DNA of 52,079 nt from Candidatus Saccharimonadota bacterium (GCA_043737735.1 JAYTAB010000013.1:1-52079); one strand, 5' to 3'. Shown: positions 7,956 to 30,132, counted from the stretch's first letter. Translations and numbers: made by a program. The notes: generated by a model from the sequence alone, not told the origin.

Positions 7956-7998
7956 TCTAGTACCAGACACTCAAGTAGCTAGATTGCAAATCCTAACC

Positions 7999-8027
7999 TT
8001 GTAATCGCAGGTAGAATGCTGTAATAT
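7999..8027 (+). promoter_or_regulatory. Putative sigma70-type promoter upstream of rpmF (TTGTAA-17 nt-TAATAT)
   Basis: TTGTAA at 7999-8004 and TAATAT at 8022-8027 with 17-nt spacing, 57 nt upstream of the rpmF ATG. Confidence 0.35.
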
Positions 8028-8083
8028 AAGCGCAAAGCTTAATGTTAATATATTGCCGTACAAGGTAATGAGGAGTGTATGTT

Positions 8084-8248
8084 ATGGGAAAACCAAAGAA
8101 ACGAACCAGTCCACGCGCTACCGGCGCCCGCCGAAGTCACTTGTTGCTAAAGCTAGCCCGAGCCGTCAACGCTAAGTCACCGATCAAGGTCTACACGACC
8201 CGACGTGAGTCTAGTAAAGATTTAGGCAAACGAGTTGCAAAAGTCTAA
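8084..8248 (+). CDS. rpmF: 50S ribosomal protein L32 (not in the ORF track because it is under 60 aa)
   Basis: 54-aa ORF MGKPKKRTSPRATGARRSHLLLK matches the L32 N-terminal signature (PKKRTS...RRSH). AGGAG lies 8 nt upstream of the ATG. Confidence 0.8.
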   Translation: MGKPKKRTSPRATGARRSHLLLKLARAVNAKSPIKVYTTRRESSKDLGKRVAKV

Positions 8249-8354
8249 GCCGACTTCGTAAAAGCACAGACATTATTAAGCATCTTCGTCTATACTAGAA
8301 AGTAGTTTGACGGATAACCCAATATTTTTGTAAATCGCACGGAGCCTTAACAAT

Positions 8355-8912
8355 ATGGCATCAAATCGCCACCTCGGTCGCATTATTGCACTCCAAACCT
8401 TGTATGAGGAGGAGTTTCGCAGCGACGCCGCCGATGTAAATTTTAACCTCGAAGAGGTGTTGCAGCGCAACATCGATCGCTACTCGGAGATGGTTGACGA
8501 CGTCGCCTTCATCTGTGATTTAGTAAATGGTGTTCTCAAGCATGCCGCTGACCTCGATGCGACCTTGCAGCCGATTGCTCCCGATTGGCCTATTGACCAG
8601 ATCGCTAGGATGGACCGTATCGTTCTGCGTATCGGTCTATACGAACTGGTGTATGCCCGCGACGTTCCACCGAAGGTGGTTATCAATGAAGCTGTTGAAT
8701 TGGCCAAAGCCTTTGGCGGTGAAAACTCGAGCAAATTCGTGAATGGCGTGCTTGGAACGGTGCTACGGCAACGCGAATTGTCTGATGGCGACACGGCTAA
8801 GCCGGAAACTTCATTGGATGACGAGTCGACGGAAACGTCCGAGGACCAGGCGTGTGAACCAGAGTCGGCTCCAATAACCACACCAAAAACCAAAAGGGCA
8901 AAGGTTACGTGA
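8355..8912 (+). CDS. nusB: Transcription antitermination factor NusB with acidic C-terminal extension
   Basis: RIIALQTLYEEEF and INEAVELAKAFGGENSSKFVNGVLG. About 50 extra Asp/Glu/Ser/Thr-rich residues at the C-terminus. Confidence 0.9.
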   Translation: MASNRHLGRIIALQTLYEEEFRSDAADVNFNLEEVLQRNIDRYSEMVDDVAFICDLVNGVLKHAADLDATLQPIAPDWPIDQIARMDRIVLRIGLYELVYARDVPPKVVINEAVELAKAFGGENSSKFVNGVLGTVLRQRELSDGDTAKPETSLDDESTETSEDQACEPESAPITTPKTKRAKVT

Positions 8913-8913
8913 A

Positions 8914-9546
8914 ATGGCTGACGAACTTCAGAGCAAACCGAGCAGTGAGAACTCTCAGCGCGCCAACAAAGGCCAGCAGCGGGATCAGTCCAGCGATCAG
9001 CGTAGAGGTCAACGCATAGATCTGCCGAGGGACCGCAGCCTGTTCGGCAAACATTCCGGACCGATTCAGGGTATTCGCGATTTTGTCGCCAAGCGTCGCC
9101 CCTCAATAGACGAGGTTGTTCGCGAGACGACTTCCGGTGGCATCGTGTTTCGGCGCAATTCCGACACCAACAAGGTCGAGATTCTGCTGATACAGGACGC
9201 CAAGAACCGTTGGACGATACCAAAAGGTCATGTCGAAGAAGGCGAAGGCCCGAAGCAAACCGCGGAACGCGAAATTCGCGAGGAAACAGGCTTACAGGAG
9301 ATGAAGGTCTACGACTGGCTGGGCAAGGTCAATTTCCGCTATCGCCGCACCCACACCTTGGTACTTATGACTATGCACATCTATCTCGTGAAGGGTTTGG
9401 GCGATACCAATAAGCTGGAGGGTGAAGACTGGCTGACGGATATCAAATGGTTTCCAGCTGCCGAGGCCGTCGACAAAATCGCCTACGAAGACATCGGCAA
9501 ACTGATGCTGCTAGGCATGAAAAAAATACGCGACGCAAAATTGTAA
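8914..9546 (+). CDS. NUDIX hydrolase with disordered N-terminal extension
   Basis: Canonical Nudix box GHVEEGEGPKQTAEREIREETGL. Starts 1 nt after the nusB stop. Confidence 0.85.
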   Translation: MADELQSKPSSENSQRANKGQQRDQSSDQRRGQRIDLPRDRSLFGKHSGPIQGIRDFVAKRRPSIDEVVRETTSGGIVFRRNSDTNKVEILLIQDAKNRWTIPKGHVEEGEGPKQTAEREIREETGLQEMKVYDWLGKVNFRYRRTHTLVLMTMHIYLVKGLGDTNKLEGEDWLTDIKWFPAAEAVDKIAYEDIGKLMLLGMKKIRDAKL

Positions 9547-9571
9547 TAAACGCTACAGAGATGAGAAAATA

Positions 9572-10270
9572 ATGGACTACGCACCCTACCAAGAATTCGC
9601 AACCAAAGTACTCGGCGTCACCTTTCGTGACATCGAATTGCTCATCACGGCATTTACTCACCGCTCCTATGTCAATGAGCACAAAAAGACAGTCAGCGTC
9701 CACAACGAGCGTCTAGAGTTCCTCGGCGACGCTGTGCTCGAGCTAGTCGTCACCGAATATCTGTATGGCAATTATGATGACCCAGAAGGCATCCTGACCA
9801 ATTGGCGCAGTGCATTGGTGCGAACCGAGAGTATCGGTGCTGCCGCCGCCAAAGCCGGATTCGAACCGCTACTGCGACTCAGCAGGGGCGAGAAACGCGG
9901 TAGTGACCGAGCCCGCGAGCAGATCCTGGCCAACGGATACGAGGCAGTACTCGGTGCCCTCTACCTCGACCAAGGCTACGCTGCCGCCAAGAAATTTATC
10001 ACCGAAACCATCCTTAGCACTTTCGAACAGATCCTGTCCAGCGGTTCGTGGATGGACGCCAAATCCCATCTCCAGGAAGTCGTTCAAAGCCGCGAAGGCT
10101 TCACGCCAGTTTACAAGGTTCTCGAAGAAGTCGGCCCAGATCACGATAAGATATTTACCGTCGGTGTTTTCGTCGGTGTAAACCTCCGTGGCAGCGGCAC
10201 GGGCCCTAGCAAACAGGCCGGCCAACAAAAGGCCGCCGAAGCTGCACTGGCGTATTACGCCGAGCAATAG
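9572..10270 (+). CDS. rnc: Ribonuclease III
   Basis: RNase III signature ERLEFLGDAVLELVV plus a C-terminal dsRBD (GPSKQAGQQKAAEAAL). Confidence 0.95.
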   Translation: MDYAPYQEFATKVLGVTFRDIELLITAFTHRSYVNEHKKTVSVHNERLEFLGDAVLELVVTEYLYGNYDDPEGILTNWRSALVRTESIGAAAAKAGFEPLLRLSRGEKRGSDRAREQILANGYEAVLGALYLDQGYAAAKKFITETILSTFEQILSSGSWMDAKSHLQEVVQSREGFTPVYKVLEEVGPDHDKIFTVGVFVGVNLRGSGTGPSKQAGQQKAAEAALAYYAEQ

Positions 10271-10348
10271 AACGCATCAGACGACTAGCGAAGGGTGGCC
10301 AGACACCATCAATGCATAAATAGCACAATTTGTGGTATTTTATGTACC

Positions 10349-11062
10349 ATGAGTTTGAGCAAAGTTGAGTTGACCGCTGACAAGACTGTCTTGCCGGTCG
10401 GAATAGAAGTGCCATGGGGAGAATGGCTACAATCGAGCGCTCATAGCGCCGTCTATACCAATGGAATTGATGATGGTCTATGCAGACAACCCCGAACTCG
10501 ATTGGATAATACGCATCTTGTGATGATTAATGGTCCATGTGGCGCTGGAAAAAGCACAATATCAAGGGTATTAGCCGAACGGTTGCCTAACGCCGTGCTA
10601 CTCAGCACCGATGATTTACGAGACACCATGCCGGAACCGCTCATACCCGATGTGTTGGGTCGTGATGAACGATTTGCTTTTATGAAAGATGTCAATTTTG
10701 TTGGTAGGCAAATAGCCAAAAAAGCGTTGCTAGCAGATCGAGATGTTATCGTAGACGGTATCCTGTATGAGGATGAGTGGATTGATCCTTGGACAGACCT
10801 AGGTGAGGCGTGCGGGGCACAGGTTGCGGACGTATGCGTTTATGCGCCGAAGGCTACTGTTACAGAAAGAGTGCTTCGGAGAGATGCGAATGAGAACAGT
10901 CGGCTAACACCAGCGAAAATTTCTGATTTGTATGATAAAGTGATGAGTTTCTATGTACATCGACCGGACTCCTTCGTTGTTAGAAGTGATGAATTAACGC
11001 CTATGGCTGCGGCGAACAGTATTGTTTACTATCTAGATTATGGAATCGTTGGAATACGCTAA
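10349..11062 (+). CDS. P-loop NTPase/kinase (AAA_33 / zeta-toxin-like fold)
   Basis: Walker A INGPCGAGKSTISRVLA followed by LLSTDDLRD. Start placed at internal Met MSLSKVEL. Confidence 0.6.
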   Translation: MSLSKVELTADKTVLPVGIEVPWGEWLQSSAHSAVYTNGIDDGLCRQPRTRLDNTHLVMINGPCGAGKSTISRVLAERLPNAVLLSTDDLRDTMPEPLIPDVLGRDERFAFMKDVNFVGRQIAKKALLADRDVIVDGILYEDEWIDPWTDLGEACGAQVADVCVYAPKATVTERVLRRDANENSRLTPAKISDLYDKVMSFYVHRPDSFVVRSDELTPMAAANSIVYYLDYGIVGIR

Positions 11063-11129
11063 AAACCTGAAGTACGCCAACTGGGAGGAGTGCAGACCAC
11101 TTGATAATACTGGAAGTACCCATAAGCGT

Positions 11130-11166
11130 AAAAACCCTTGCTATTTTTGGCTAGGGTTTTTATTAT
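11130..11166 (+). terminator. Rho-independent terminator-like hairpin after the P-loop gene
   Basis: AAAAACCCTTGC / GCTAGGGTTTTT stem with one mismatch, 8-nt loop, followed by a T-rich tract. Confidence 0.55.
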
Positions 11167-11197
11167 ATAGTTACAACAAACATAAGAGGAAAAGAAT

Positions 11198-11272
11198 ATG
11201 AGGGGACTTGCAAGGTCTGGAGGAATTCTCGTTATTCCTCAAGGCGCAGTCTGTTCATGCGTCGACCCATAA
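11198..11272 (+). CDS. Candidate 24-aa small ORF (MRGLARSGGILVIPQGAVCSCVDP)
   Basis: GAGGA lies 9 nt upstream of the ATG. The stop is followed 3 nt later by a terminator hairpin. The unit is bracketed by two terminators. Confidence 0.3.
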   Translation: MRGLARSGGILVIPQGAVCSCVDP

Positions 11273-11275
11273 ATC

Positions 11276-11305
11276 TCCCGCCCTTAAATCGGCGGGAATT
11301 TTTTT
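11276..11305 (+). terminator. Rho-independent terminator
   Basis: TCCCGCC / GGCGGGA 7-bp stem, 8-nt loop, then ATTTTTTT. Confidence 0.6.
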
Positions 11306-11332
11306 ATTATCGAAAAATAGAAGGGAAATTGT

Positions 11333-12250
11333 ATGGCGGCGGAACTTGTAACCCCTTTAGATTCACTATCTGGCATGCCTTTATCGGTGGCACCACCCTT
11401 GCAGCCGCTTCCACGAAATAACCCAAATGTAGCGAACTGGCATCATTTGTATCACCCTCGAGATTCTGCGGAGTTACACACTGTTGGTGGTTGTGCGCTT
11501 CGCAATTCACGTGTCCAGCTTTTGCTAGTACGTGATCATAATGTGGGTCGACATACTTATCATACTTACTTTAAAGGACCTGTATTGCCGCAGGAACATG
11601 ACGAAGATGCGCAGTTTAGTTTGATTGTTCTAGCATGTGGTGGATATTTGCCTCAAGAGGTTATTGATATATCCGGAGATGAACCGAAGGTTCGACAGAT
11701 GACCAACCAAGAATACGATGTATTTAGACTTGTGCCAAAACCGCGATTAGTGGGATTGGACGATGTCCGGAGATATAGGATCGCCCATGGTGGTGCTGGG
11801 GTTGAAGGTAATTTGACCAGTCAAACTAATCGTGAAGTTCTCCAGAGGCTAAACAGGCGCAACAAAGAACAAGCAAAAATGGGTTACAACAATTTCCGTT
11901 ATGCCTATGAGCCTATACGTGATTTTTTCCAGCAGTATGCAATCAAGCAACCGCTTGGGCATATCTCAGAAATTTATATTGATGAATTTTTGTTCACAGA
12001 GGACATAAGACGTCGAAATAATTTAGGCCACTGGTTGTTGGCAAAACAGTCTGAAGTTGCCTCAGAACGGGTCGAAGAAGTATATTCGCAAGCGCGCAAA
12101 ATGGGCGCATTGCATCCGCTTATGCCCCGACACGCCAATGATCTAGTCAAACACAAATTAGGCGATGTGAACCACCGATTGCGACTCTTGGATGACTTAC
12201 GATTACGATTACTTGGTAATCTCGAAGCGACTGGTGTAACTCTAGTTTGA
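11333..12250 (+). CDS. Hypothetical protein (His-rich N-terminal motif NWHHLYHPR...HTVGG...DHNVGRHTYH)
   Basis: 305-aa ORF with non-repetitive composition. No confident family assignment. Confidence 0.55.
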   Translation: MAAELVTPLDSLSGMPLSVAPPLQPLPRNNPNVANWHHLYHPRDSAELHTVGGCALRNSRVQLLLVRDHNVGRHTYHTYFKGPVLPQEHDEDAQFSLIVLACGGYLPQEVIDISGDEPKVRQMTNQEYDVFRLVPKPRLVGLDDVRRYRIAHGGAGVEGNLTSQTNREVLQRLNRRNKEQAKMGYNNFRYAYEPIRDFFQQYAIKQPLGHISEIYIDEFLFTEDIRRRNNLGHWLLAKQSEVASERVEEVYSQARKMGALHPLMPRHANDLVKHKLGDVNHRLRLLDDLRLRLLGNLEATGVTLV

Positions 12251-12355
12251 CAACAGAGGCCACAATCTGTAAAATAGTGTGGAATACCTTAGTAATGTGA
12301 TAAACCCTCGTTTCGTACCAGAGACGAGAGTAAGAAAGAGAGAAGTCAGCCTTTT

Positions 12356-12709
12356 ATGCTATCAATTCGTATGCAACGCACCGGTCGTAAGGGACACGCA
12401 ATGTTCCGTCTCGTGGTTCAGGAGTCTCGTTTGACACCGACAAGCGGCAAAGTCGTCGCTCAACTTGGCAGTTTCGACCCACACAATAGGACCGCTCAGG
12501 TTAATGTCGAGAAGGCTGCCCTGTACCTAAGCAATGGCGCTCAGCCCTCCGGCCGCGCTGCATTATTGCTGCAAAAAGAAGGCGTTAAGCTTCCGAAATG
12601 GGTCAAGCTTTCTGCGGCCAAGAACCGTAAGACTCGTCACCCCGAGAAACTTCGTAAGAACCAGCCTGCTGTAGTAGCCGTCGACGAGCCAAAGGCCGCT
12701 GAAGTCTAG
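12356..12709 (+). CDS. rpsP: 30S ribosomal protein S16
   Basis: MLSIRMQRTGRKGHAMFRLVVQESR...GSFDPH matches the S16 N-terminal signature. Confidence 0.9.
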   Translation: MLSIRMQRTGRKGHAMFRLVVQESRLTPTSGKVVAQLGSFDPHNRTAQVNVEKAALYLSNGAQPSGRAALLLQKEGVKLPKWVKLSAAKNRKTRHPEKLRKNQPAVVAVDEPKAAEV

Positions 12710-12870
12710 ACAGTCCTCCCTGGCCAGACTAATTAGTCGGCGTATTTAACTTATTACAAAGAATTACGGATTATACCACAAGTCGTCTATGACCTAGGTA
12801 ACATCAGTACTCTAAGGTTTTTGATATAGTGTAGTTTACTAGTAGATAACCCAGAGAGGGAAGGCCGACC

Positions 12871-13410
12871 ATGGATAGTAGCATAGACCAGAAATTTGTC
12901 GAATTTGTCGTAAGATCATTAGTCAGCAACCCGGATGCGGTTGTCATTGAGCGTCGTATTGACGAAAAGGGAGTATTGCTCGAATTGACCGTCGACCCTG
13001 AAGATCTTGGTCGGGTGATAGGCAAACGCGGTGCCACGGCTCAAAGCATCCGTACGCTACTACGCGCACTGGGTACCAAGAACGATGCCCGTTACAACCT
13101 CAAGATTGTTGATAATGGAGTCGGTGACCATGGAAGTCACGATGGCCATGACAGCCATGACAGCCATGATGATAATGGTCGATCGAGCAATAGCGGCTAC
13201 GACAGGCGAGATGACTCCGTCGGCTCCAGCAACTCTGCTAGCGACGACGCGACAAATCCGAGTGCCTCACGACCCTCGAATAATGACGGTGATGACGATG
13301 ACCTCGATAATGTAGTGACAACAAGCACTTCGAGCGATGAAATCCCAGAGAGCGATGCCATCGCCAAAACCCGCAAAGAGCTCGAAGCCTACGACGACCT
13401 CGACATCTAG
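12871..13410 (+). CDS. KH-domain RNA-binding protein (YlqC/UPF0109-like) with long His/Asp/Ser-rich tail
   Basis: KH GXXG motif VIGKRGATAQSIRTLL. Conserved position between rpsP and trmD. About 100-aa low-complexity tail. Confidence 0.8.
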   Translation: MDSSIDQKFVEFVVRSLVSNPDAVVIERRIDEKGVLLELTVDPEDLGRVIGKRGATAQSIRTLLRALGTKNDARYNLKIVDNGVGDHGSHDGHDSHDSHDDNGRSSNSGYDRRDDSVGSSNSASDDATNPSASRPSNNDGDDDDLDNVVTTSTSSDEIPESDAIAKTRKELEAYDDLDI

Positions 13411-20059: not shown

Positions 20060-21166
20060 GTGAGAAGTAAAATACCGAATATGTTGCAATCAATCCGCAG
20101 AATGGCTATGCTCAGATTACTCACGGCTGTTGTCGTCATTGTGGGTGTCGGAGTCGTCGGAAGTTATATTATGGCCACTTCGCTGGTCCAGTCGTCGCAA
20201 GCTGAGAGATTGCAGGAAGTACCCGAACGGACTTTGCTGCGGCCCACTAGCCTAGGTACTGCACCGTATCAGTATGTTGCGTATAGTGGATCATTGTCTC
20301 AGACCCAGGAGTCCACCGGCATCAATCAGTATTTCGCAGCTTTTATGATTAGCGGTAAGGGCTGTACTCCGGCGTGGGGCGGTAGCGGGGCGGCAGGGCT
20401 GACTAGTCAGCGGTCGGCGGAGATAGCATCTGACATTACCAAGCTTCGACAACGTGGCGGGGAAGTCGCGATTTCGTTCGGTGGCGCGGGCGGCGTAGAT
20501 CTTGCGTCGGCTTGTCCGACAGCTACTGCGCTAACGGCTGCATACCAGGATGTTATCAACACCTATGGCTTGAGACGGATTGATTTTGACATAGAGGGCC
20601 TGACGTTGGAGGATACCGTCGGCAATGCGCGACGAGCCGAGGCTATCGCCAGTCTACAGCAGGCCAATCCATATCTAAGGATTTGGGTGACGCTGCCGGT
20701 CCATACCAAAGGCCTGACCGATCCGGGTGTAGCGGTAATCCGAGAGCTGCGTGACCAAGGTGTCGTTATTAGTGGTGTGAATATCATGGCGATGAATTAC
20801 AATATTCGCAGCAAGGATATGGGACGGCAAGCGATTGATGCGTCTCGGGCAACCTTTGGGCAGATGAGGCAGTTGTTCCCACGCAGCGCAGAGGCCGACA
20901 TCTGGAAATCAATCGGAATTACAGTGATGATAGGTCGCAACAACACTGCGCCAGAGACGTTTACGCTTGCCGATGCCCCGAAAGTGCGAGATTTTGCGCT
21001 TCAAAAGGGTGTTGGCATGCTCAGTATGTGGAGTACTGGTCGTGATGCTGATTGCTCGGATACTAGTGTGAATGGTGTGGCTACCGAACCTAGCATATCG
21101 TGCAGTGGCGTCGCTCAGAAGCCCTATCAGTTCCTGCAAGCGTTGACTATTCCAGCCCTCAAATAA
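20060..21166 (+). CDS. Secreted glycoside hydrolase family 18 (chitinase-like)
   Basis: N-terminal signal/anchor and the GH18 catalytic motif LRRIDFDIEG (DxDxE). GAGGGA RBS before the GTG. Confidence 0.7.
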   Translation: MRSKIPNMLQSIRRMAMLRLLTAVVVIVGVGVVGSYIMATSLVQSSQAERLQEVPERTLLRPTSLGTAPYQYVAYSGSLSQTQESTGINQYFAAFMISGKGCTPAWGGSGAAGLTSQRSAEIASDITKLRQRGGEVAISFGGAGGVDLASACPTATALTAAYQDVINTYGLRRIDFDIEGLTLEDTVGNARRAEAIASLQQANPYLRIWVTLPVHTKGLTDPGVAVIRELRDQGVVISGVNIMAMNYNIRSKDMGRQAIDASRATFGQMRQLFPRSAEADIWKSIGITVMIGRNNTAPETFTLADAPKVRDFALQKGVGMLSMWSTGRDADCSDTSVNGVATEPSISCSGVAQKPYQFLQALTIPALK

Positions 21167-21240
21167 GGTGTCTAGTGTTAAATTTGATATATAGGACTAA
21201 AGGCGTTACAATATATTATAATTGTTTTGTAAAGGTAGCT

Positions 21241-22164
21241 ATGAGCGTCTTGAACACGTTATTACTGCGGATTCTCCGGGCCATGAATTATACGATCGTG
21301 TTATACGTAATTGCTGCGGTGGCGGTAGTACTTACGCTGACTAGTCGTACGGCTAGTGAGGCGATAATCGACTTTTGTTTTGGTGGTATAGTGCCGGGTA
21401 CGGATCATGTGTTGGCGCCGGGTGTTGTGATAACGGGAGTAATGGTGGCATTGGGGCTCATCATTGTAGGCGTGTTATCCTCCTGGCTGCTCCGCGTCGT
21501 GGCTGTCAAGCAGGCTATGAAACACGTCGGGCTCACGCTACCGGCGCTGCTAGAACCATCGGAAATCATCGCCGTTCCGGTCGCGGCAGTCTCGGGGTCG
21601 GTCACAAAAACGTCCAGACCTCGTTCGCTCAAGAAAACGACTTCGGTTGCCAGCTCGCATACCTATACTTTGGCTCGATGGTTTGCTGGACTTCTGCGCA
21701 AATCCTCGACCCGGGCTGTTGATTATGCTTGGATAGATCGCGTGCAAACAGCGGTGTTACCGGTTTTACGCGTGATCATGGCGGCCACAATATATTTGTT
21801 TATTTCACTGAAAGGTATCGGTACAGGAACTCTTCGGCTGTTGACCTCGATAATCTTCGCATTCATTGCCATCGTAGCGATCGTTGGTGACTGGCTGGCC
21901 GTCCACATACGGGCATCTGCCAGCAGACTCTGGCGTAAAACAGTTATAACTACTCGGGCTCTGGCGACTTTCGTGCGTGTACAGAGTACGAGATTCTGGC
22001 GCTGGCTGGAACCACGTGCCTCGAGATTCGACACTTGGTTGGAAATACAATATCGAACTGCAGTTACATGGATCAAACAGCAGTTCGGCCGCTCTGAACC
22101 GGCACAAGTTCTAGTGACGATAGCCCGCGAAATCTCCGACACGTTTCGTCAGCTATTCAAATGA
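21241..22164 (+). CDS. Hypothetical multi-pass membrane protein
   Basis: Start placed at internal Met MSVLNTLL. Several hydrophobic helices and an Arg/Trp-rich C-terminal region. Confidence 0.5.
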   Translation: MSVLNTLLLRILRAMNYTIVLYVIAAVAVVLTLTSRTASEAIIDFCFGGIVPGTDHVLAPGVVITGVMVALGLIIVGVLSSWLLRVVAVKQAMKHVGLTLPALLEPSEIIAVPVAAVSGSVTKTSRPRSLKKTTSVASSHTYTLARWFAGLLRKSSTRAVDYAWIDRVQTAVLPVLRVIMAATIYLFISLKGIGTGTLRLLTSIIFAFIAIVAIVGDWLAVHIRASASRLWRKTVITTRALATFVRVQSTRFWRWLEPRASRFDTWLEIQYRTAVTWIKQQFGRSEPAQVLVTIAREISDTFRQLFK

Positions 22165-22351: not shown

Positions 22352-23002
22352 ATGAATCAACAAATGGCCGACAAGATACATACATATTTTTCCAAATTTC
22401 CAAAACGAACCTATGACAAGGGTCAGATTTTGGTGTTTGCCGACGAGACGCCGGAGCACATATTTTATATTACCGAAGGCAAAGTTAGGCAATATGACGT
22501 ATCGTATCGGGGTGATGAGGTTATTGTCAATGTCTTCACTCCACCGGCGTTTTTTCCAATGTCTTGGGCAATCAATCGTACTGAAAATCAATATTTTTAC
22601 AAAACCGAGGAAACAACGGAAGTGTACGTTGTGCCGGTAGATGCCGTTCTAGAATTTATCAAATCCGACCCGGAAGTGCTGTTTGATCTTTTGAGCCGAG
22701 TTTACATAGGTATCGATGGTCTGCTTGGCAGGGTTGTGCATCTGATGTCCGGAACAGCCAAAAGCCGTTTGATGTACGAACTTATCATAGAGTGTCGTCG
22801 CTTTGGTGAAAAGCAGACCGATGGTAGCTTCGTGCTGCGAACCAATGAAGTTGATATTGCGGCGCGCTCTGGTTTGTCCCGCGAAACAGTAAGTCGCGAG
22901 ATTCGTAAAATACAGACCAACGGCCTCGTCAGTGTCGTGCGCGGCGGAATGATTGTCAATGATTTGGCAGCCCTCGAGGCACTACATGGTGCTGAAATCT
23001 AA
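22352..23002 (+). CDS. Crp/Fnr family transcriptional regulator
   Basis: N-terminal cNMP-binding beta-barrel pattern (FYITEGKVRQY) and C-terminal HTH SRETVSREIRKIQTNGLV. Confidence 0.85.
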   Translation: MNQQMADKIHTYFSKFPKRTYDKGQILVFADETPEHIFYITEGKVRQYDVSYRGDEVIVNVFTPPAFFPMSWAINRTENQYFYKTEETTEVYVVPVDAVLEFIKSDPEVLFDLLSRVYIGIDGLLGRVVHLMSGTAKSRLMYELIIECRRFGEKQTDGSFVLRTNEVDIAARSGLSRETVSREIRKIQTNGLVSVVRGGMIVNDLAALEALHGAEI

Positions 23003-23020
23003 TAGCATGTTCGACGAGCG

Positions 23021-23557
23021 CTAGTCTCGATTGAGATCGAATGATTCGATTGATTCGAATATCTGGCCGTTATTGTCAGAATCTGGTTCGGCAAAAGTAG
23101 ACAAATGGATCTGGTCCGGTTGAATGGTAAAAGCGACGTATTTGCCGGCCTTCAGTTGGGCAATCGGCAGACGTCCAGATGTGGTCGACTCTAGGCTGGA
23201 CCCAAACACCGCAATAGATAGAGCACTTATTTTATGACTATCCCGAATCTCGGTGGTCGTTCCATTGATCTGCGCCGTTGTTAGCGACGCTGGTTCATGC
23301 ACGGTAAGCGCAGCTCGATTGTTATGAGTAAGGTTGTTGTATTTTTGAGTGCCAGCCCTGGTCAAAAATGAGATACTAAAATCTTCATTGACTGTGTAGC
23401 TAATTACCACACCGTGTGGGCTGCCGTTCGGTGTGGTAGTAGACAGGATGCCGACTGGATTTTGCCTGAGGAAGTTGTGAATGCGTCTTTCTCTGTCTGA
23501 GAACTTGTTCGGATTGACCGTGGCTAAATCCGTTGCTTTAATGCTCTCGTTAGTCAT
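23021..23557 (-). CDS. Pyridoxamine 5'-phosphate oxidase-like FMN-binding protein
   Basis: FLRQNPVGILSTTTPNGSPHGVVISY...AALTVHE pattern typical of the PNPOx / general stress protein 26 split-barrel family. Confidence 0.7.
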   Translation of the reverse strand: MTNESIKATDLATVNPNKFSDRERRIHNFLRQNPVGILSTTTPNGSPHGVVISYTVNEDFSISFLTRAGTQKYNNLTHNNRAALTVHEPASLTTAQINGTTTEIRDSHKISALSIAVFGSSLESTTSGRLPIAQLKAGKYVAFTIQPDQIHLSTFAEPDSDNNGQIFESIESFDLNRD

Positions 23558-23811
23558 TGCTAACCCCCTTGCTTGCTAGCCCTTAAATATTTTAGTTTCT
23601 GCTCGTCTATGCATCTCTGCAATGCCAGGCGTCACGCGTGGTCTGTGATCGTGCTCAATGCATGATCGTGGGTTGTGATCAGGTCGAGCGCGCACTAATC
23701 TCTACGAGGGTGTAGTATAATAAGTGTTGGTGCGATATAACTACGGTCACGTACGTGGCTCAAGTTTATGCCTGAGATATGCTCGTAGAATACAAACAAA
23801 TAGGAGACAAT

Positions 23812-24372
23812 ATGTCACGACAAACAAAAGACAGACAAAGCAAACAAGACCAGACCGTTACCAAGCTGTGTCGGTCGCTTGCCGTGTTGGCGACCGTTGC
23901 GTTGCTAGCAATCGGCGGGTTGGCATGGTGGGGCTATAATTATACCACCGGAATGGTCAGAACTGAGTTGGCGGCCCAGAAAATATATTTTCCCGTCAAA
24001 GGCAGCCCTAGCTTAGACCCACAGGAATTTCCTGACCTGCAACAGTACGCCGGTCAACTTGTCGATAATGGACCCAAGGCAAAGGCATATGCCAATGGTT
24101 TCATCGGTCGTCATCTCGAGAAAGTAGCTGGCGGCAAAGTGTACGCCGAAGTCAGCGCCGAAGCCAAGAAGGACCCGACGAACGTCAAACTGCAACAGCA
24201 GAAGCAAACACTGTTCCAGGGGGAGACACTGCGCGGTATGTTGCTCGGCAACGGCTTTGCGTTTTGGACCTTCGGTAAGATCGCCCAAGCTGCTGCCGTC
24301 GTCGCCTTCACTGGCGCTGCTTGTTCGGCCGGCTTGGTAGTCGTATTCACCAAACGCTTAGGTAGAAGTTAG
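23812..24372 (+). CDS. Hypothetical membrane protein (N- and C-terminal TM helices)
   Basis: AGGAG RBS before ATG 23812. Helices LAVLATVALLAIGGLAWWG and AAAVVAFTGAACSAGLVVVF. Confidence 0.55.
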   Translation: MSRQTKDRQSKQDQTVTKLCRSLAVLATVALLAIGGLAWWGYNYTTGMVRTELAAQKIYFPVKGSPSLDPQEFPDLQQYAGQLVDNGPKAKAYANGFIGRHLEKVAGGKVYAEVSAEAKKDPTNVKLQQQKQTLFQGETLRGMLLGNGFAFWTFGKIAQAAAVVAFTGAACSAGLVVVFTKRLGRS

Positions 24373-24385
24373 ACCACGGAGATTT

Positions 24386-24985
24386 ATGAGTAAACAGAGG
24401 ACGCTTCCGGAAATATTACCGTACATATTCATAATTGCCGGTGTTATAGGTGCTGTGGCGTCCTTTGTCCTGATGTATGACAAGATACAGATTCTGATCA
24501 ACCCGAACTTCCATCCGTCGTGCAACGTCAATCCGATACTCAGTTGTGGATCGGTCATGAATACCGAGCAGGCAAGTCTGTTTGGGGTGCCAAATACCGT
24601 ATTTGGTTTGATGGCTTTCACGGCTCTGATAACATTCGGTTTCATGCTGGCGGCCGGTGCCAAAGTCCAACGCTGGGTTTGGGTTGTGGCCGAACTAGTA
24701 GCGCTGGTCGGCGTGATCTTCATGCACTACCTATTTTTCCAGGGCGTTTTCCGGATCAACGCGATATGTCCTTGGTGCTTTGTAGTGTGGATGATCACCA
24801 TCCCGACCTTTTGGTATCTAACACTCTATAATCTACGCGAGGGCAACATCCAGCTGCCGCTGCGTCTCACAAGAGTAGGCGACTATCTGCAGAGACACCA
24901 TGGTAATATTTTGACGCTCTGGTATCTCGTGATATTCATGATCCTGCTGACGCACTTCTGGTATTACTGGAAAACCTTGATTTAA
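24386..24985 (+). CDS. Vitamin K epoxide reductase (VKOR) family protein
   Basis: Loop cysteine pair SCNVNPILSCGSV, the CxxC motif in AICPWCFVVW, and 4-5 TM helices. Confidence 0.8.
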   Translation: MSKQRTLPEILPYIFIIAGVIGAVASFVLMYDKIQILINPNFHPSCNVNPILSCGSVMNTEQASLFGVPNTVFGLMAFTALITFGFMLAAGAKVQRWVWVVAELVALVGVIFMHYLFFQGVFRINAICPWCFVVWMITIPTFWYLTLYNLREGNIQLPLRLTRVGDYLQRHHGNILTLWYLVIFMILLTHFWYYWKTLI

Positions 24986-25050
24986 TTTCAAAGTACAGAA
25001 TGCCTAGTACCCTGCTACAAATATTGTGATGTATTTCACTATGCTTCTAG

Positions 25051-25260
25051 CTCCTGAGGCAATACCCCGACAAGGTATACGTCTTCTCCTTTGTATGTAA
25101 GCTCTTCAAAAGGCGAGTACATTGTTACCCTCTAGATATAATCAACACACTGTCTGAACCGGTGCGCAACATACAGTATCTCGAGCAAGTGGCAGAACGG
25201 CTTCCTGAAACGCCTGTTCGGGCTACATGGACAAAGCAGGGACTTTTGATTATATTGTAA
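25051..25260 (+). pseudogene. Start-less coding remnant ending ...PVRATWTKQGLLIIL*
   Basis: 69-codon open frame with no ATG or RBS. Shares a 33-nt in-frame repeat with the stub at 26995-27189. Confidence 0.3.
25222..25254 (+). repeat. Direct repeat copy 1 (GCTACATGGACAAAGCAGGGACTTTTGATTATA)
   Basis: 31/33 identical to 27040-27072, in the same orientation and the same reading frame. Confidence 0.9.
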
Positions 25261-25306
25261 ATGGCGAGGATTTCATCACACGCCGAATATTTATCTCTTA
25301 CGAACT

Positions 25307-25633
25307 ATGTACACACATCAACTAAATAATTTACCACAAGCATTACGGCCAAAAGCCATTTCCTTAGCACCATTAGGGCTTAGTTCATGGTCATTATCAG
25401 TTACTGACACTGTAAGTTTGTTGAATCACTTCGAAGGAAAAGTTGTTTTGGGCGGAGACCTATACATAAAACGGGATACTTCAACATATGTATGGTATGG
25501 CAATTGGTCATACGAACCCGCCAATGCGGTGACCGATCCGCAACAAAGTGTCCAAACAGGATTAGATTATCTGAACTGCCTTCCGGATAAAGACGTGGAC
25601 GTTGTCATAGTCGATTTAGTCATACAGGATTAA
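25307..25633 (+). CDS. Small hypothetical protein (108 aa), island ORF A
   Basis: Intact ORF in the low-GC island. Motif VLGGDLY...WYGNWSYEP. No TM helix or signal peptide. Confidence 0.5.
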   Translation: MYTHQLNNLPQALRPKAISLAPLGLSSWSLSVTDTVSLLNHFEGKVVLGGDLYIKRDTSTYVWYGNWSYEPANAVTDPQQSVQTGLDYLNCLPDKDVDVVIVDLVIQD

Positions 25634-25686
25634 TCTGTTTGGACGATTGCTTAAATTGCATACGCAATAATTAAAAGGATTTACGA

Positions 25687-26070
25687 ATGAACGATGATTT
25701 AGCTGAACACGTCGAAGAATTGAATCTGAAAATCGAAACTACTCAGGATAATGTCGAATTAATGAAATCTTATGCCCCTGATTATTTTATGAGCTTACGG
25801 GCCTACTTGCCCGAACTTCTAAATAACATCAATCATCAATCTGACGGCACTAAAAAATCGAAAATTTTAAAATCTGTCTTTTTGATACAGCGTGAGCTGA
25901 TGGCTTTTAGGGTCGTGGCAGATATGTCGATCGATGACGATTTGTGGGAAATTGCATATGATTTTGATAATGATGACCCGTTAATTTACCCATATCTGCT
26001 TAAAAAAATTAAGGACGGAAGCTATTTGCTTCAAGCAAATCTGGAGCGACCCAATGATAGTACGACTTAA
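25687..26070 (+). CDS. Small acidic hypothetical protein (127 aa), island ORF B
   Basis: AAGGA RBS 7 nt upstream. Asp/Glu-rich and predicted helical. Confidence 0.55.
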   Translation: MNDDLAEHVEELNLKIETTQDNVELMKSYAPDYFMSLRAYLPELLNNINHQSDGTKKSKILKSVFLIQRELMAFRVVADMSIDDDLWEIAYDFDNDDPLIYPYLLKKIKDGSYLLQANLERPNDSTT

Positions 26071-26440
26071 AAAACCAATTATAGGAAAAACGGATAATTA
26101 TGCGTATGTCTGTGAACCTGATAAAAACCATTTCGTATATGCGATCTTACAGACAAAGGGCGCTGATGACCTGGGTTATATGATCAATGTATGGGGACTG
26201 AATACGAACAATACTATTTATGATATCCCCGCTCATTATTTCACAATCGTTGATAAGTCGATTCCTAATGATTGGCAAGAAGGTACGTATGAGGCATACG
26301 GCAAGGAGATCACGATACAAAGTTTTGCAGAGATGGCAGAAGATAAGTACTTTTACGATAAACTCATGAACGAAGATGAAAGGACGGTGCGCATATTCAC
26401 GAAGTATGCTGAACTGTACGAGGATATGGCTGCTAAATAA
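26054..26440 (+). CDS. Small hypothetical protein (128 aa), island ORF C
   Basis: Overlaps ORF B by 17 nt, suggesting translational coupling. Acidic. Confidence 0.55.
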   Translation: MIVRLKKPIIGKTDNYAYVCEPDKNHFVYAILQTKGADDLGYMINVWGLNTNNTIYDIPAHYFTIVDKSIPNDWQEGTYEAYGKEITIQSFAEMAEDKYFYDKLMNEDERTVRIFTKYAELYEDMAAK

Positions 26441-26454
26441 ATAAAGGACTTGTT

Positions 26455-26937
26455 ATGAAACTAGATATTGAGCTTACAAACGATGAGGACAAAGAACTCA
26501 ACCAGGCACTCCAGGATATGATAAAGCACGAGAAGGATATACGAACGGCTGCAGCTAAAGCAATTGACGATAAGGCAGAGCTAGGCTCTGAGTTGTATGA
26601 CTTTTCTCCCGAGTACTGGATAAAAAACTGGAACGACTTAATAGACGAGATACAGAATGGCTACAATTTCGGAATGTACGACTATACTGATTCGCTGACT
26701 TTTAGAGATTTCATCCAATGCTATACTGACATGTTATCGAGCGAACTACGCAAAAAAGTACTGGCACTTGTTGAGCCGGTAGATGATAAATATAGGCTGC
26801 TTACAGACATAACTGATCTAACCCTAGAGGGTAGTGTATCCGCGTATTCAATGCTTTCGTGGTGGCACCGTAGAGTCCCCAAAAAGCTCAATAGTGAGTT
26901 CAAAGCGGATTTAGATTCCTTAACAAGCGGACATTAA
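26455..26937 (+). CDS. Small acidic hypothetical protein (160 aa), island ORF D
   Basis: AAGGA RBS. Starts 14 nt after ORF C. Confidence 0.55.
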   Translation: MKLDIELTNDEDKELNQALQDMIKHEKDIRTAAAKAIDDKAELGSELYDFSPEYWIKNWNDLIDEIQNGYNFGMYDYTDSLTFRDFIQCYTDMLSSELRKKVLALVEPVDDKYRLLTDITDLTLEGSVSAYSMLSWWHRRVPKKLNSEFKADLDSLTSGH

Positions 26938-26994
26938 ATGGATCCCCTAGTCAAGTAGATAACTTTGCCGCCTCTGGTAAATATCAAATGATAA

Positions 26995-27189
26995 CAGGTG
27001 GTTACGGTGGACTCTACAAATCTATCAGGATGCCGGGTAGCTACATGGACAAAGAAAGGACTTTTGATTATACCTAGAGGGCGGCACTGGACTGTGCCAG
27101 GTAAGATGAACGGTTCGCAAGGAGTGTGGGAGGTGACTTTAGACCTAAGTTCTAAAGAAATTACACATTTTATGTTTAAATCATTGTAA
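26995..27189 (+). pseudogene. Start-less coding remnant ...CRVATWTKKGLLIIPRGRHWTVPGKMNGSQGVWEVTLDLSSKEITHFMFKSL*
   Basis: The frame opens just after a TAA stop. It has only a GTG and no RBS. It contains repeat copy 2 in frame and ends 15 nt before ORF E. Confidence 0.35.
27040..27072 (+). repeat. Direct repeat copy 2 (GCTACATGGACAAAGAAAGGACTTTTGATTATA)
   Basis: 31/33 identical to 25222-25254, 1818 bp downstream. Confidence 0.9.
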
Positions 27190-27204
27190 CTAAAGGAGAT
27201 ATAT

Positions 27205-27648
27205 ATGCGATTTGTGTTCATTGAAGTTTCCCCCGCAAACATTCCTGGCATGCGTATTACGAAAGACCAGAATGATAATTTGGCCACCATCAATGATGGC
27301 CCGACAGTGGCTAACACTTACTTTACGTGTGGAGATTTGGTGCTCAACTACAACCAAGAAAGTGGAGAAGTTGTAAGCTTTGATGGCTATCTCCCGTATT
27401 TTGAAACGTTACAAGTTGACCATAAGGCCATGCTGCCAGCGAAAGCGATCCCAGCTAGGCTATTCGTAGGCGACCTGAGTGATAAACCAATCTTTTCGGT
27501 AGAAAAGTTGCCACTACAACTTCTTGGAGGCGGAAATATCATTCACGCTGGACGCGGTAAATCATCCCAGATTCTTAAGCTCAGTGAGGATATTTACATT
27601 GGTCTTAACAATGAGTCTATTACAGACATGTATTTGCGCCTGAGTTAA
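27205..27648 (+). CDS. Small hypothetical protein (147 aa), island ORF E
   Basis: AAGGAG RBS 7 nt upstream of the ATG. Followed by a strong terminator. Confidence 0.55.
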   Translation: MRFVFIEVSPANIPGMRITKDQNDNLATINDGPTVANTYFTCGDLVLNYNQESGEVVSFDGYLPYFETLQVDHKAMLPAKAIPARLFVGDLSDKPIFSVEKLPLQLLGGGNIIHAGRGKSSQILKLSEDIYIGLNNESITDMYLRLS

Positions 27649-27698
27649 GACTACGAGATGGATGCATGTTCCAGTTTGTGGGATGTCGCCCTCCCCTC

Positions 27699-27742
27699 AA
27701 ACTGAACGCACCGCCTTAACCATAAGACGGTGCGTTCAGTTT
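27699..27742. terminator. Bidirectional terminator hairpin between ORF E and xfp
   Basis: Perfect 15-bp stem AAACTGAACGCACCG / CGGTGCGTTCAGTTT with a 14-nt loop. Confidence 0.75.
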
Positions 27743-27762
27743 AGCTTTGGCTATTGCTCCGT

Positions 27763-30132
27763 CTAGCGTTCCCATTGCCAGTCGCGCACCTCGGGCATGT
27801 CGACGCCGTGAATAGTAATGTAATTGGAATGCTCAATCAGCTTCATCTCCATCAGCTCTTTGAGTCGAGTGCCAGCTTCGCCGGTCGACGGCGTGCGGTC
27901 GATGACGTCCATAACCAAGTGGAAGCGGTCCATCGTGTTCAGTACGGTCATATCAAACGCTGTCGTTATCGTGCCTTCTTCTTTGTAACCTCTGACGTGC
28001 ATATTGCGGTTGGTGCGGCGGTAGGTCAGGCGGTGGATCAACCACGGGTAACCATGGAAGGCGAAGACGATGTGCTTGTCGGTCGTGAAAAGATTGTCGT
28101 AATCCATTTCGCTCAGGCCGTGTGGATGTTCGGTTTCGGGTTCGAGTTTCATGAGATCGACGACGTTGACGACGCGTATCCGTAGGCTCGGCAGGTGCTC
28201 GCGAAGTATAGATACGGCGGCCAACACTTCGATGGTCGGGACATCGCCGGCACAGGCCATGACGACATCCGGTTCGCCGTCTTGTTCGTTGCTAGCCCAG
28301 TTCCAGACGCCGATACCGGTGGTACAGTGTTCAATCGCTTCTTCCATCGTTAGCCACTGCGGGGCGTCATGTTTGCCGCAGACGGTCAAGTTGATGTAGT
28401 TGCGGCTTTGCAAACAGTGGGCGGTGACAGAGAGTAGACAATTGGCGTCAGGGGGTAAGTATACGCGAACCATGGCTGACTTTTTGTTGAGCAAATGATC
28501 GATGAATCCGGGATCTTGGTGTGTGAACCCGTTGTGATCTTGACGCCAAACCAGCGAGGTCAGTAGGTAGTTCAGTGATGCGATCTCTTTGCGCCAAGGC
28601 AACTCGGAAGACATTTTGAGCCATTTGGCGTGTTGGTTGACCATCGAGTCGACGATCCGGATGAAAGCTTCGTAGCTGTTGAGTATGCCATGCCGACCGG
28701 TCAATAGGTAGCCTTCTAACCATCCCTCGGCTTGGTGTTCGCTGAGCATCGAGTCGAGGATCGCGCCGCGTGGCGCCAGAAATTCATCGTTGTCTTTGGT
28801 GCGGGCCAGCCACTGGCGGTCACTGGCTTCAAACACAGCATCCAGCCTATTGGATAGGGTCTCGTCCGGAGCAAAAATCCGAAAGTTGTGGTGCTCTTGG
28901 TTAAGTTTGATGACATCCCGAAGGTATGGACCGAGTGCATGGACATTGCCAACCCCACCCTCGCCACGTACTGGTACACCGACGGCGTAGTCTCGGAAGG
29001 GTGGTAACTGTAGCTCGCGGAGTAGATTGCCGCCGTTGGCATGGACGTTTGAGCCCATTCGGTGCATGCCCTTTGGGGCTAGTTCGGCTAGTTCTGGTAG
29101 TAATCGTCCATGATCGTCGAATAGCTCTTCGGGCTTATAGCTTTTCATCCAGGTCTCTAGGAGTGCGACGTTGTCTTGGTGTGCGGCATCGATGGTTATA
29201 GGCACCTGGTGCGAGCGGAAATTACCCTCTACGACGTGGCCATCGACCGTCTTCGGTCCGGTCCATCCCTTGGGGGATTTCAGGATAATCATCGGCCAGC
29301 GCGGGCGCGACGCGTCATTGTTGGTGCGGGCATTGGTCTGAATTCGCTTGATCTCGTCGAAGGCCGTGTCGAGAGTCGAGGCCATCAACTGGTGCATTGT
29401 TTCTGGATCGTCGCCCTCGACAAAGAGTGGATTCCAGCCGTAGCCTCGGAACAACTGCTCCAGCTCTTCCGGTTCGATGCGGGCCAGGAGTGTCGGGTTG
29501 CTGATCTTGTAACCGTTCAAGTGCAGTATCGGCAGCACGGCGCCGTCACTGATAGGATTTAGAAACTTGTTGGAGTGCCAGGCCGTCGCTAGTGGGCCAG
29601 TCTCGGCCTCTCCATCACCGACAACGCAGGCTGTGATGAGGTCTGGGTTGTCGAAGACTGCACCAAAGGCGTGGCTCAGTGAATAGCCGAGTTCGCCGCC
29701 CTCGTGGATCGAGCCGGGAACTTGCGGCGACACGTGGCTGGACAATCCGCCCGGGAAAGAAAAACGTTGAAATAGTTTTTTAAGTCCGGCTTCGTCTTGA
29801 GTGACCTCCGGGTAGACATCGCTGAAGGTGCCTTCTAGGTAGACGTTACCGACAACAGCCGGGCCGCCATGTCCAGGACCAGAAATGTAGATGATACTAC
29901 TACCGCGGTCTTTGATTATTCTATTCAAATGCACATAGATGAAGTTTTGACCTGGCGTCGTTCCCCAGTGGCCAAGTAGCATTTGCTTGACGTCACTCAG
30001 CTCGAGTGGCCGACGCAGCAGCGGGTTGTCTCGGAGGTAAATCTGCCCGACCGACAAATAATTGGTAGCCCTCCAATATGCATTAATCTTGGCTAGCATT
30101 TCTATCGATAACGGCGACTGTGTCGAACCCAT
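27763..30132 (-). CDS. xfp: Xylulose-5-phosphate/fructose-6-phosphate phosphoketolase
   Basis: 789 aa. [33 protein letters not shown], and typical TPP-enzyme length. Confidence 0.95.

Follow-up and report, generated by a model that had tools for sequence, protein, structure and literature searches.

In Proteobacteria, Bacteroidota and Firmicutes, polyimmunity loci and orphan cassettes are a familiar feature. The heterogeneous polyimmunity loci, for which protection from the toxins of non-kin was proposed by Zhang, Aravind et al. in 2012 (PMC3482391), are tandem, tightly spaced genes on one strand; the encoded immunity proteins are structurally unrelated, an intact toxin is missing, and by definition the series is never interrupted by toxin genes or cassettes. 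The orphan C-terminal toxin/immunity modules of rhs, cdiA and mafB, known for example from the maf islands of Neisseria (locus L081), consist of a C-terminal toxin fragment followed by the cognate immunity gene, and the acquired interbacterial defence (AID) clusters of Bacteroidales are horizontally acquired arrays of orphan immunity genes, some of them with toxin fragments (Ross et al. 2019, as cited in PMC13622651). Here we describe a locus of related design in a stretch of 52,079 nt from a Candidatus Saccharimonadota bacterium (GCA_043737735.1, JAYTAB010000013.1:1-52079; the whole stretch is hereafter called the window), in which five small open reading frames (ORFs), A to E, and three broken pieces of toxin genes occupy an island at 24986-27762, between the VKOR gene and xfp. 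The island is very probably a horizontally acquired array of immunity genes against polymorphic toxins, left over from or assembled from toxin cassettes and free-standing within the 52 kb; this reading is carried by homology and gene context, by the decayed state of the toxin pieces, by the foreign composition and by the fact that the assembly is reproducible. A preliminary description of the same DNA had proposed an array of orphan toxin stubs and immunity genes, and the proposal is supported, in that each of the five ORFs has a link to immunity against polymorphic toxins and the stubs are remnants of the Ntox19 type. The features concerned, with positions counted along the window, are as follows.

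25209-25325, plus strand: toxin remnant 1, the C-terminal end of an Ntox19-type domain (NACSGYMDKAGTFDYIVNGEDFITRRIFISYELCTHIN, then a stop), with stops upstream and no start codon
25222-25254, plus strand: copy 1 of a 33-nt direct repeat, encoding (S)YMDKAGTFDY, where the core of the family is GxFEYI
25307-25633, plus strand: ORF A, 108 aa, Imm40 family, with the motifs VLGGDLYIK...YGNWSYE (GGD, W)
25687-26070, plus strand: ORF B, 127 aa, acidic and helical, with a precomputed Pfam record for PF28101 (CdiI-like)
26054-26440, plus strand: ORF C, 128 aa, a family without a name that occupies immunity positions
26455-26937, plus strand: ORF D, 160 aa, a second nameless family in immunity positions, with a WWHRRVP motif
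26940-27077, plus strand: toxin remnant 2, the middle of an Ntox19-type domain (GSPSQVDNFAASGKYQMITGGYGGLYKSIRMPGSYMDKERTFDYT, then a stop), running from right after the stop of D to repeat copy 2
27040-27072, plus strand: copy 2 of the direct repeat, identical to copy 1 at 31 of 33 bases
27088-27189, plus strand: toxin remnant 3, the C-terminal end of an Ntox19-related toxin of the type found in locus L097 (WTVPGKMNGSQGVWEVTLDLSSKEITHFMFKSL, then a stop), 15 nt upstream of E
27205-27648, plus strand: ORF E, 147 aa, all-beta, a rare family with the fold of CdiI-EC869

The block A-B-C-D fits the 2012 definition of a polyimmunity locus exactly. The array as a whole, however, is interrupted by toxin remnants before A and between D and E, and the locus is therefore a hybrid of a polyimmunity block and orphan cassettes, that is, a heterogeneous polyimmunity/orphan-cassette locus, a kind of locus that is already known. 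The order of a C-terminal toxin fragment followed by an immunity gene is shared with the orphan modules of rhs, cdiA and mafB, and remnant 1 with A reproduces both the MafB-CT/Imm40 pair of Neisseria gonorrhoeae and an orphan Ntox19/Imm40 pair of Leptospira noguchii. Whereas orphan modules follow full-length rhs, cdiA or mafB genes, none is found within 25 kb upstream of the island, where a VKOR gene, a PNPOx gene and a gene for a Crp-like regulator lie; typical orphan modules are, moreover, much longer than the remnants, which break off within the toxin domain and not at the pre-toxin junction. With the AID clusters the island shares horizontal acquisition, but no recombinase or mobile backbone was seen among the window ORFs scanned, protection is a prediction here, and phylum and lifestyle differ from those of the Bacteroidales clusters. 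As for taxonomic range, neither Saccharibacteria nor the candidate phyla radiation (CPR) is named in the taxon lists of the available part of PMC3482391, and no description of immunity arrays in Saccharibacteria or Patescibacteria was found in the searchable literature; a single RHS toxin with a neighbouring immunity gene was noted in passing for a soil Saccharibacterium (PMC6031116).

Results

Remnants of an Ntox19-type toxin domain

The last ~75 aa of MafB from N. gonorrhoeae recur at the ends of Burkholderia RHS proteins and of a Duffyella hemagglutinin-repeat protein, and they also match unannotated or otherwise annotated DNA of Leptospira, Nocardia, Vibrio, Bacillus and Deinococcus; the next gene in each of these outside toxin loci encodes Imm40 or DUF2247. 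According to Zhang et al. (PMC3482391), Ntox19 toxins have a predicted BECR fold with the motifs D, H, DxxxR, E and HxxF, the last of them close to the C-terminus, are carried by MafB-N, RHS and type V and type VII secretion system (T5SS, T7SS) proteins, and are partnered by Imm40 or Imm38 (= DUF2247). Because motifs, carriers and immunity partners agree with that account, the outside family is identified as Ntox19. A hidden Markov model (HMM) of 107 positions, built from nine outside toxin ends only (MafB, RHS, CdiA-like and other carriers), was run, with no filter applied, on the complete six-frame translation of the window, which comprises 1,510 stop-to-stop segments, and its top three matches all fall within the two stub regions, the next match having an E-value of 1.6. 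The best match of the window lies in remnant 2 (26940-27071, GSPSQVDNFAASGKYQMITGGYGGLYKSIRMPGSYMDKERTFDY, E 4.2e-6, HMM positions 37-80), and the others lie in remnant 1 (25224-25301, YMDKAGTFDYIVNGEDFITRRIF, E 3.9e-4, positions 71-96) and remnant 3 (27088-27177, WTVPGKMNGSQGVWEVTLDLSSKEITHFMF, E 2.3e-3, positions 65-93). Profile match, motif layout and the Imm40 partner agree with the Ntox19 system paired with Imm40 or Imm38, of which only fragments are present here; remnant 3 represents a divergent branch, partnered by the family of E. Longer homologues of the stubs exist in the MafB, RHS and CdiA-like carriers and in an RHS protein of at least 777 aa at locus L097.

All three pieces are decayed. 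HMM positions 1-36, the region of the D and H motifs, are missing from each of them; remnant 2 has GGYGGLY for GGDxxxR and FDY for FEY, and remnant 1 has RRIF for HxxF, a change of H to R, so that only remnant 3 keeps the E and HxxF motifs (WEV, HFMF). In-frame stops lie upstream of the remnants, which have no start codon with a ribosome-binding site. The remnants cannot be active toxins because the N-terminal third and the start codons are gone and motif positions are substituted in remnants 1 and 2; they are relics of the Ntox19 family and not functional members of it. The two open frames without start codons to which attention had been drawn in the preliminary description (25051-25260 and 26995-27189) both exist, but the remnants are three in number, only remnant 3 lies in the frame chosen there, and the second stub does contain a GTG at 26998, although without a ribosome-binding site. 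Likewise, the peptide ATWTK(Q/K)GLLII, which had been put forward as a marker of longer proteins, turned out to be an out-of-frame reading of the 33-nt repeat that encodes SYMDKxxTFDY. When the stubs were joined in the frame of the preliminary description, they had no relatives, and a weak alignment to the C-terminus of MafB (E 0.02) was set aside since that frame is largely wrong.

The 33-nt direct repeat, two matches of which occurred in 0 of 100 shuffled sequences, encodes in its meaningful frame the toxin core SYMDK(A/E)(G/R)TFDY, a coding motif present in no other fetched locus. The DNA similarity between remnants 1 and 2 is limited to these 33 nt; if remnant 2 is joined to the tail of remnant 1, the product matches HMM positions 39-96 without a gap (36.6 bits, E 3e-10). 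Since remnants 1 and 2 look like the 3' and 5' parts of one domain, the unit of toxin domain and A-B-C-D appears to be circularly permuted. Such a permutation could have come about by insertion or recombination through the 33-nt homology, the conserved core of the toxin, which would have split the domain around A-D. An inverted sequence is associated with the same boundary:

25128-25145, minus strand: inverted partial copy, matching at 17 of 18 bases the joint at 27064-27081 (TTGATTATA/YCTAGAGGG), the break point of remnant 2

An inverted pair of this quality was seen in 3 of 300 resampled sequences, and with its flanks it extends to a 30-nt inverted repeat of 80 % complementarity around remnant 1, A-D and remnant 2, which could be a recombination scar or mark the ends of an element. 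Repeat copy 1 also contains a promoter-like sequence, TGGACA-17-TATATT (25228-25256), which agrees with the consensus at 10 of 12 positions about 50 nt upstream of A, while the promoter scan overall gave no enrichment over shuffled sequences; the decayed toxin core may now serve as the promoter of the array.

ORFs A to D

Direct scans of A-E and of the stub frames of the preliminary description against Pfam, NCBIfam, PADLOC and PHROGs gave nothing significant, and sequence searches of the PDB, for which stub 2, A, B and the two toxin profiles served as queries, returned matches at chance level only. The first relatives of A, C and D were weak matches in a plasmid collection, obtained by tblastn of the concatenated proteins. 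The five families of the island are mutually unrelated.

For ORF A, the precomputed Pfam record of a newer release gives PF15569 (Imm40) with no mark of weakness, i.e. E <= 1e-5. A profile of three outside Imm40-type sequences, one of which passes the Pfam threshold (44.4 bits), matches only A in the six-frame translation of the window (E 5.4e-11). The 100-aa ORF that directly follows the MafB gene in N. gonorrhoeae and has a sub-threshold Imm40 match itself is 32 % identical to A over 99 aa. Imm40 proteins are characterized by conserved GGD, F and W motifs and adjoin Ntox19 toxins (Zhang et al. 2012, PMC3482391); A has the GGD and W motifs, and it is adjoined by the Ntox19-type remnant 1, whose stop falls 19 nt inside A. 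The unannotated orphan Ntox19 C-terminal module that we noticed on a Leptospira noguchii plasmid (locus L086, 2252-3086), directly upstream of an annotated imm40 and before another RHS gene, is a clean example of the orphan pair ancestral to remnant 1 and A.

ORF B has, apart from a fragment that sits inside the second array described below, no other protein relative and no relative in the PDB, and its single-sequence AlphaFold 2 (AF2) model, with a predicted local distance difference test (pLDDT) score of 54, is of low confidence and unusable. ORF C shares 39 % identity over 64 aa with the product of a Leptospira noguchii gene that directly follows a toxin gene annotated as "polymorphic toxin type 10", which has Pfam matches to Ntox10 and to a teneurin-type YD-shell; in a blind phmmer search with this single Leptospira protein, only C was matched in the six-frame translation of the window (E 2.1e-12). 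The only detectable relatives of ORF D are from Streptomyces and Embleya. A profile of four actinobacterial sequences again matches only D in the translated window (E 3.5e-17); the gene of one relative overlaps a Streptomyces RHS gene at the 3' end of the latter, and that of another lies 1.7 kb after an RHS gene.

ORF E and its toxin partners

The family of E is rare: when 1.84 billion representative proteins were searched exhaustively with HMMER, only eight small relatives appeared, and in three of eight distinct genomic contexts, all on short contigs, its genes stand directly after toxins that end like remnant 3. The gene upstream of the E relative at locus L093 ends in ...WLVEGSYGKSDGMWELTLDQNSQQITHFNFVSRY, 2 nt before the relative; the RHS-repeat protein of L097 ends in ...WNVPGRFGKDNGTWELTLDLKTQEITHFLFTTRR and is followed by two E-family genes in tandem; and the context at L102 is similar. 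At L094, the E relative comes after a GIY-YIG toxin and an Imm26-like gene. In a blastp comparison, remnant 3 matches the three toxin ends with E-values of 5e-12, 4e-10 and 5e-6, calculated for a small database of 10 sequences, and by hhalign a profile of the toxin ends upstream of E relatives is related to the Ntox19 set, though divergent from it (E 3.6e-5, probability 72 %). The E family is in this way paired with a divergent Ntox19-like RHS toxin end. Past its E-family pair, L097 (1-5208) encodes a 499-aa STAND/ORC-CDC6-like NTPase and has a helix-turn-helix (HTH) gene.

The AF2 model of E, computed from nine sequences, is all-beta with a pLDDT of 89.3 and a predicted template modelling (pTM) score of 0.85, and Foldseek finds a single significant match for it in the PDB, 7vmc_C (E 4.9e-5, probability 1.00; template modelling (TM) score 0.61 normalised by the query and 0.53 by the target), the next match having an E-value of 0.59. 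Chain C of 7VMC is the beta-sandwich protein CdiI-EC869, which covers the catalytic site of its toxin, a tRNase with the BECR fold (PMC9071432). The resemblance of the model to this CdiI, and to no other solved structure, is accompanied by an identity of only 14 %. The EC869 toxin has its catalytic His close to the C-terminus (PMC9071432), as the predicted BECR domain of Ntox19 has its HxxF; on the other hand, the toxin profiles from the present locus have no sequence link to any PDB chain, and the carrier is an RHS protein rather than CdiA. From its gene context, E is predicted to bind and neutralise a cognate BECR toxin. Resemblance to immunity proteins is present in the island, in A as a member of Imm40 and in E through the match of its model to CdiI-EC869. 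That E might be a hidden Imm38 was considered and rejected, because the DUF2247 (Imm38) profile matches nothing in the window.

A second array with the same families

A metagenome scan with an alignment of four E sequences found a relative of E, 63 % identical, on a 248-kb contig recovered in three samples. The relative belongs to the following array.

7900-13250 of locus L110 (JGI contig Ga0210394_10000069, also recovered as L108 and L109), all on one strand: a larger heterogeneous polyimmunity array

After the E relative come, in order, a fragment of B, a relative of C (55 %), a protein with multiple transmembrane segments, a C-like gene, a SUKH-1/SMI1 gene that passes the Pfam threshold, another relative of C (49 %), a 235-aa protein of no assigned family, an Imm40 gene (38.5 bits) and a fragment of E, and housekeeping genes follow. 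C is present there in three copies of 41-55 % identity. The multi-transmembrane and the 235-aa proteins may be further immunity proteins. The array fits the heterogeneous polyimmunity loci of PMC3482391, and since families of the island are found in it in another order and at another locus, they travel together. The host of L110 is probably a Saccharibacterium, judging from the pyruvate kinase of the contig, which is 66 % identical to that of L009, a genome in the Saccharibacteria-dominated xfp group.

Composition, assembly and origin of the island

The low-GC island between VKOR and xfp that had been noted in the preliminary description is real, with a GC content of 0.412 at 24986-27762 against 0.500 in the rest of the window, which makes it the lowest 2.8-kb stretch of the window. 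Locally, GC falls to 0.36-0.44 within 25000-27400 while both flanks have 0.50-0.58, and GC at third codon positions (GC3) is 0.36-0.46 in A-E against 0.60-0.66 in xfp, ackA and the leucyl-tRNA synthetase (LeuRS) gene. The five intact ORFs, of 108-160 aa and all on the plus strand, are as they had been described, down to the 17-nt overlap of B and C (the intergenic distances are 53 nt for A-B, -17 nt for B-C and 14 nt for C-D), and the AAGGA(G)-type ribosome-binding sites upstream of B, D and E can be seen in the sequence. All five proteins are acidic: the marked acidity reported for B, C and D corresponds to net charges of -11, -7 and -13, and A and E have -6 and -5.

Positions 22687-26332 and 26304-28047 are 100 % identical to three contigs from two other samples that were assembled independently; the stops, the frame breaks and the junctions with VKOR and xfp are therefore real and not errors of assembly. 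The contigs from both other samples end at one shared point inside ORF C (26304-26332, an overlap of ~29 nt), which hints at a strain-level variant or a branch of the assembly graph there.

The best matches of xfp, among species-representative genomes, are in metagenome-assembled genomes (MAGs) of Candidatus Saccharibacteria/Saccharimonadales (73-79 % identity), and in several of the Saccharibacteria MAGs matched by xfp, relatives of the Crp-like regulator, the 197-aa protein and the VKOR of the window are encoded close to xfp. A-E and the stubs, in contrast to what would be expected of conserved, syntenic core genes, are absent from all 80 xfp loci examined, those of the nearest Saccharibacteria included, and the island proteins are singletons when clustered at 90 % identity. 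The VKOR-xfp junction itself gave no usable comparison with an empty site, since the nearest genomes have an xfp only ~79 % identical and a rearranged neighbourhood. The lowest GC of the window, the shift in GC3, the absence from related xfp loci and the related array elsewhere mark the island as foreign and horizontally acquired. The scanned ORFs of the 52-kb window include no intact toxin (RHS, CdiA, MafB or LXG domains), secretion gene or recombinase, in agreement with the suggestion that the array stands alone.

Discussion

If the island is an acquired immunity array, its five unrelated small cytoplasmic proteins would each bind one incoming toxin domain and block its active site, in the manner of CdiI-EC869 on its tRNase. 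A and E still stand beside the decayed 3' ends of their cognate toxin genes, the first pair being remnant 1 followed by A, i.e. Ntox19/Imm40, and the second remnant 3 followed by E, i.e. an RHS end of the L097 type and the E family. We infer that A-E are expressed and protect the epibiont from the toxins of rival or host bacteria. An ultra-small epibiont that keeps 2.7 kb of immunity genes, together with the existence of a second, related array, suggests regular targeting by contact-dependent toxins, which fits the recent view of epibionts and their hosts as antagonists, and the unannotated families C, D and E gain a testable role in immunity.

Several observations weigh against this interpretation or limit it. 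The older Pfam model PF15569.11 does not match A at E <= 1; the assignment of B depends on the precomputed record of PF28101, which was not reproduced, the family not being part of the older Pfam release that was scanned; and genomic context is unclear for two of the four relatives of D. The E-values of the single toxin remnants are modest, and their strength lies in joint location and gene context. No full-length toxin is seen within the 52 kb, and that the array once formed the 3' part of a resident toxin locus is no more than a possibility; the rearrangement history of the island is one that we infer.

A bolder form of the same interpretation is that the array is an active counter-measure against toxins of the actinobacterial host or of rival epibionts and that the A-D block between the 33-nt repeats may be a mobile unit; we regard it as unlikely as a whole. 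The A-D block could excise as a circle, rejoining the two halves of the toxin domain, and if this is true, excision of circles could spread immunity cassettes among Saccharibacteria without a linked recombinase. A counter-measure directed at the host would fit the relatives of D that adjoin RHS toxins in Streptomyces and Embleya and the attack of actinobacterial hosts on Saccharibacteria, which, according to a preprint of 2026, proceeds via Esx secretion with an effector that is not a nuclease (PMC13622651). In view of this Esx attack, a defensive role of the array is plausible.

The most serious alternative is a relic without function: a polymorphic-toxin locus would have lost its main gene, and the island would be what is left of its tail, in decay and with immunity genes that are neither expressed nor under selection any more. 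Small CPR genomes, however, rarely retain 2.7 kb of dead DNA. The decay of all three toxin pieces, the lack of a full-length toxin in 52 kb and the rarity of relatives of A-E would all be expected of such a relic, but it is hard to reconcile with a pattern of decay in which every toxin piece is broken while all five immunity ORFs are intact, tightly packed and, at B, D and E, preceded by good ribosome-binding sites. E and C are, in addition, intact in the L110 array as well, at 49-63 % identity. We therefore consider a relic quite improbable.

Two further alternatives had been raised in the preliminary description, and neither has gained from the analysis. A prophage-derived moron or anti-defence cluster, which low GC, small acidic proteins and orphan genes might have suggested, is extremely improbable, because none of the ORFs had a tblastn match among 50,697 phage records, no PHROG was matched significantly, no phage genes or integrase lie nearby, and the relatives adjoin polymorphic toxins and are not found in phages. 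That B-C-D form an uncharacterised anti-phage defence operon would suit unknown proteins encoded in a tight operon on an island of foreign DNA, but this idea deserves next to no credence, as PADLOC gave no match and there are no enzymatic domains, C and D have relatives that stand singly, right behind RHS toxins, and the copies of C in L110 occur without D, among SUKH and Imm40 genes. The notion that the stubs encode small toxins that are active, which would make live toxin-antitoxin pairs of stub 1/A and stub 2/E, draws on the toxin-like end directly upstream of an immunity gene at both places and can hardly be upheld, because the remnants cover only HMM positions 71-96, 37-80 and 65-93 of 107, without the N-terminal part that bears D and H, follow in-frame stops without a start codon served by a ribosome-binding site, and are substituted at the DxxxR, E and HxxF positions in remnants 1 and 2.

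Flanking genes and minor observations

The scanned genes of the window are housekeeping genes or have no Pfam match. In addition to VKOR, PNPOx, the Crp-like regulator, xfp and ackA, the flanks encode LeuRS, a Mur ligase, D-Ala-D-Ala ligase, a Na/H exchanger, inositol-phosphate synthase, a sulfate permease and histidine kinases; tRNA genes and Rfam families were not found in the window. One structural element closes the island on the side of xfp:

27699-27742, strand not assigned: strong hairpin with arms of 20 nt, 95 % complementary (-30.7 kcal/mol, z-score -7.5)

It lies between the convergent E and xfp and is probably a terminator shared by both.

The architecture of LeuRS (5067-7955, 962 aa) is unusual in that the editing domain is immediately followed by an inserted NUDIX domain (residues 381-510, E 2.9e-10). 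Shortly upstream of the island, three ORFs of 368, 354 and 197 aa (20060-22164 and 23779-24372) are without a Pfam match; the first two overlap by 67 nt, and the 197-aa protein has a relative of 50 % identity near xfp in another Saccharibacterium (locus L004).

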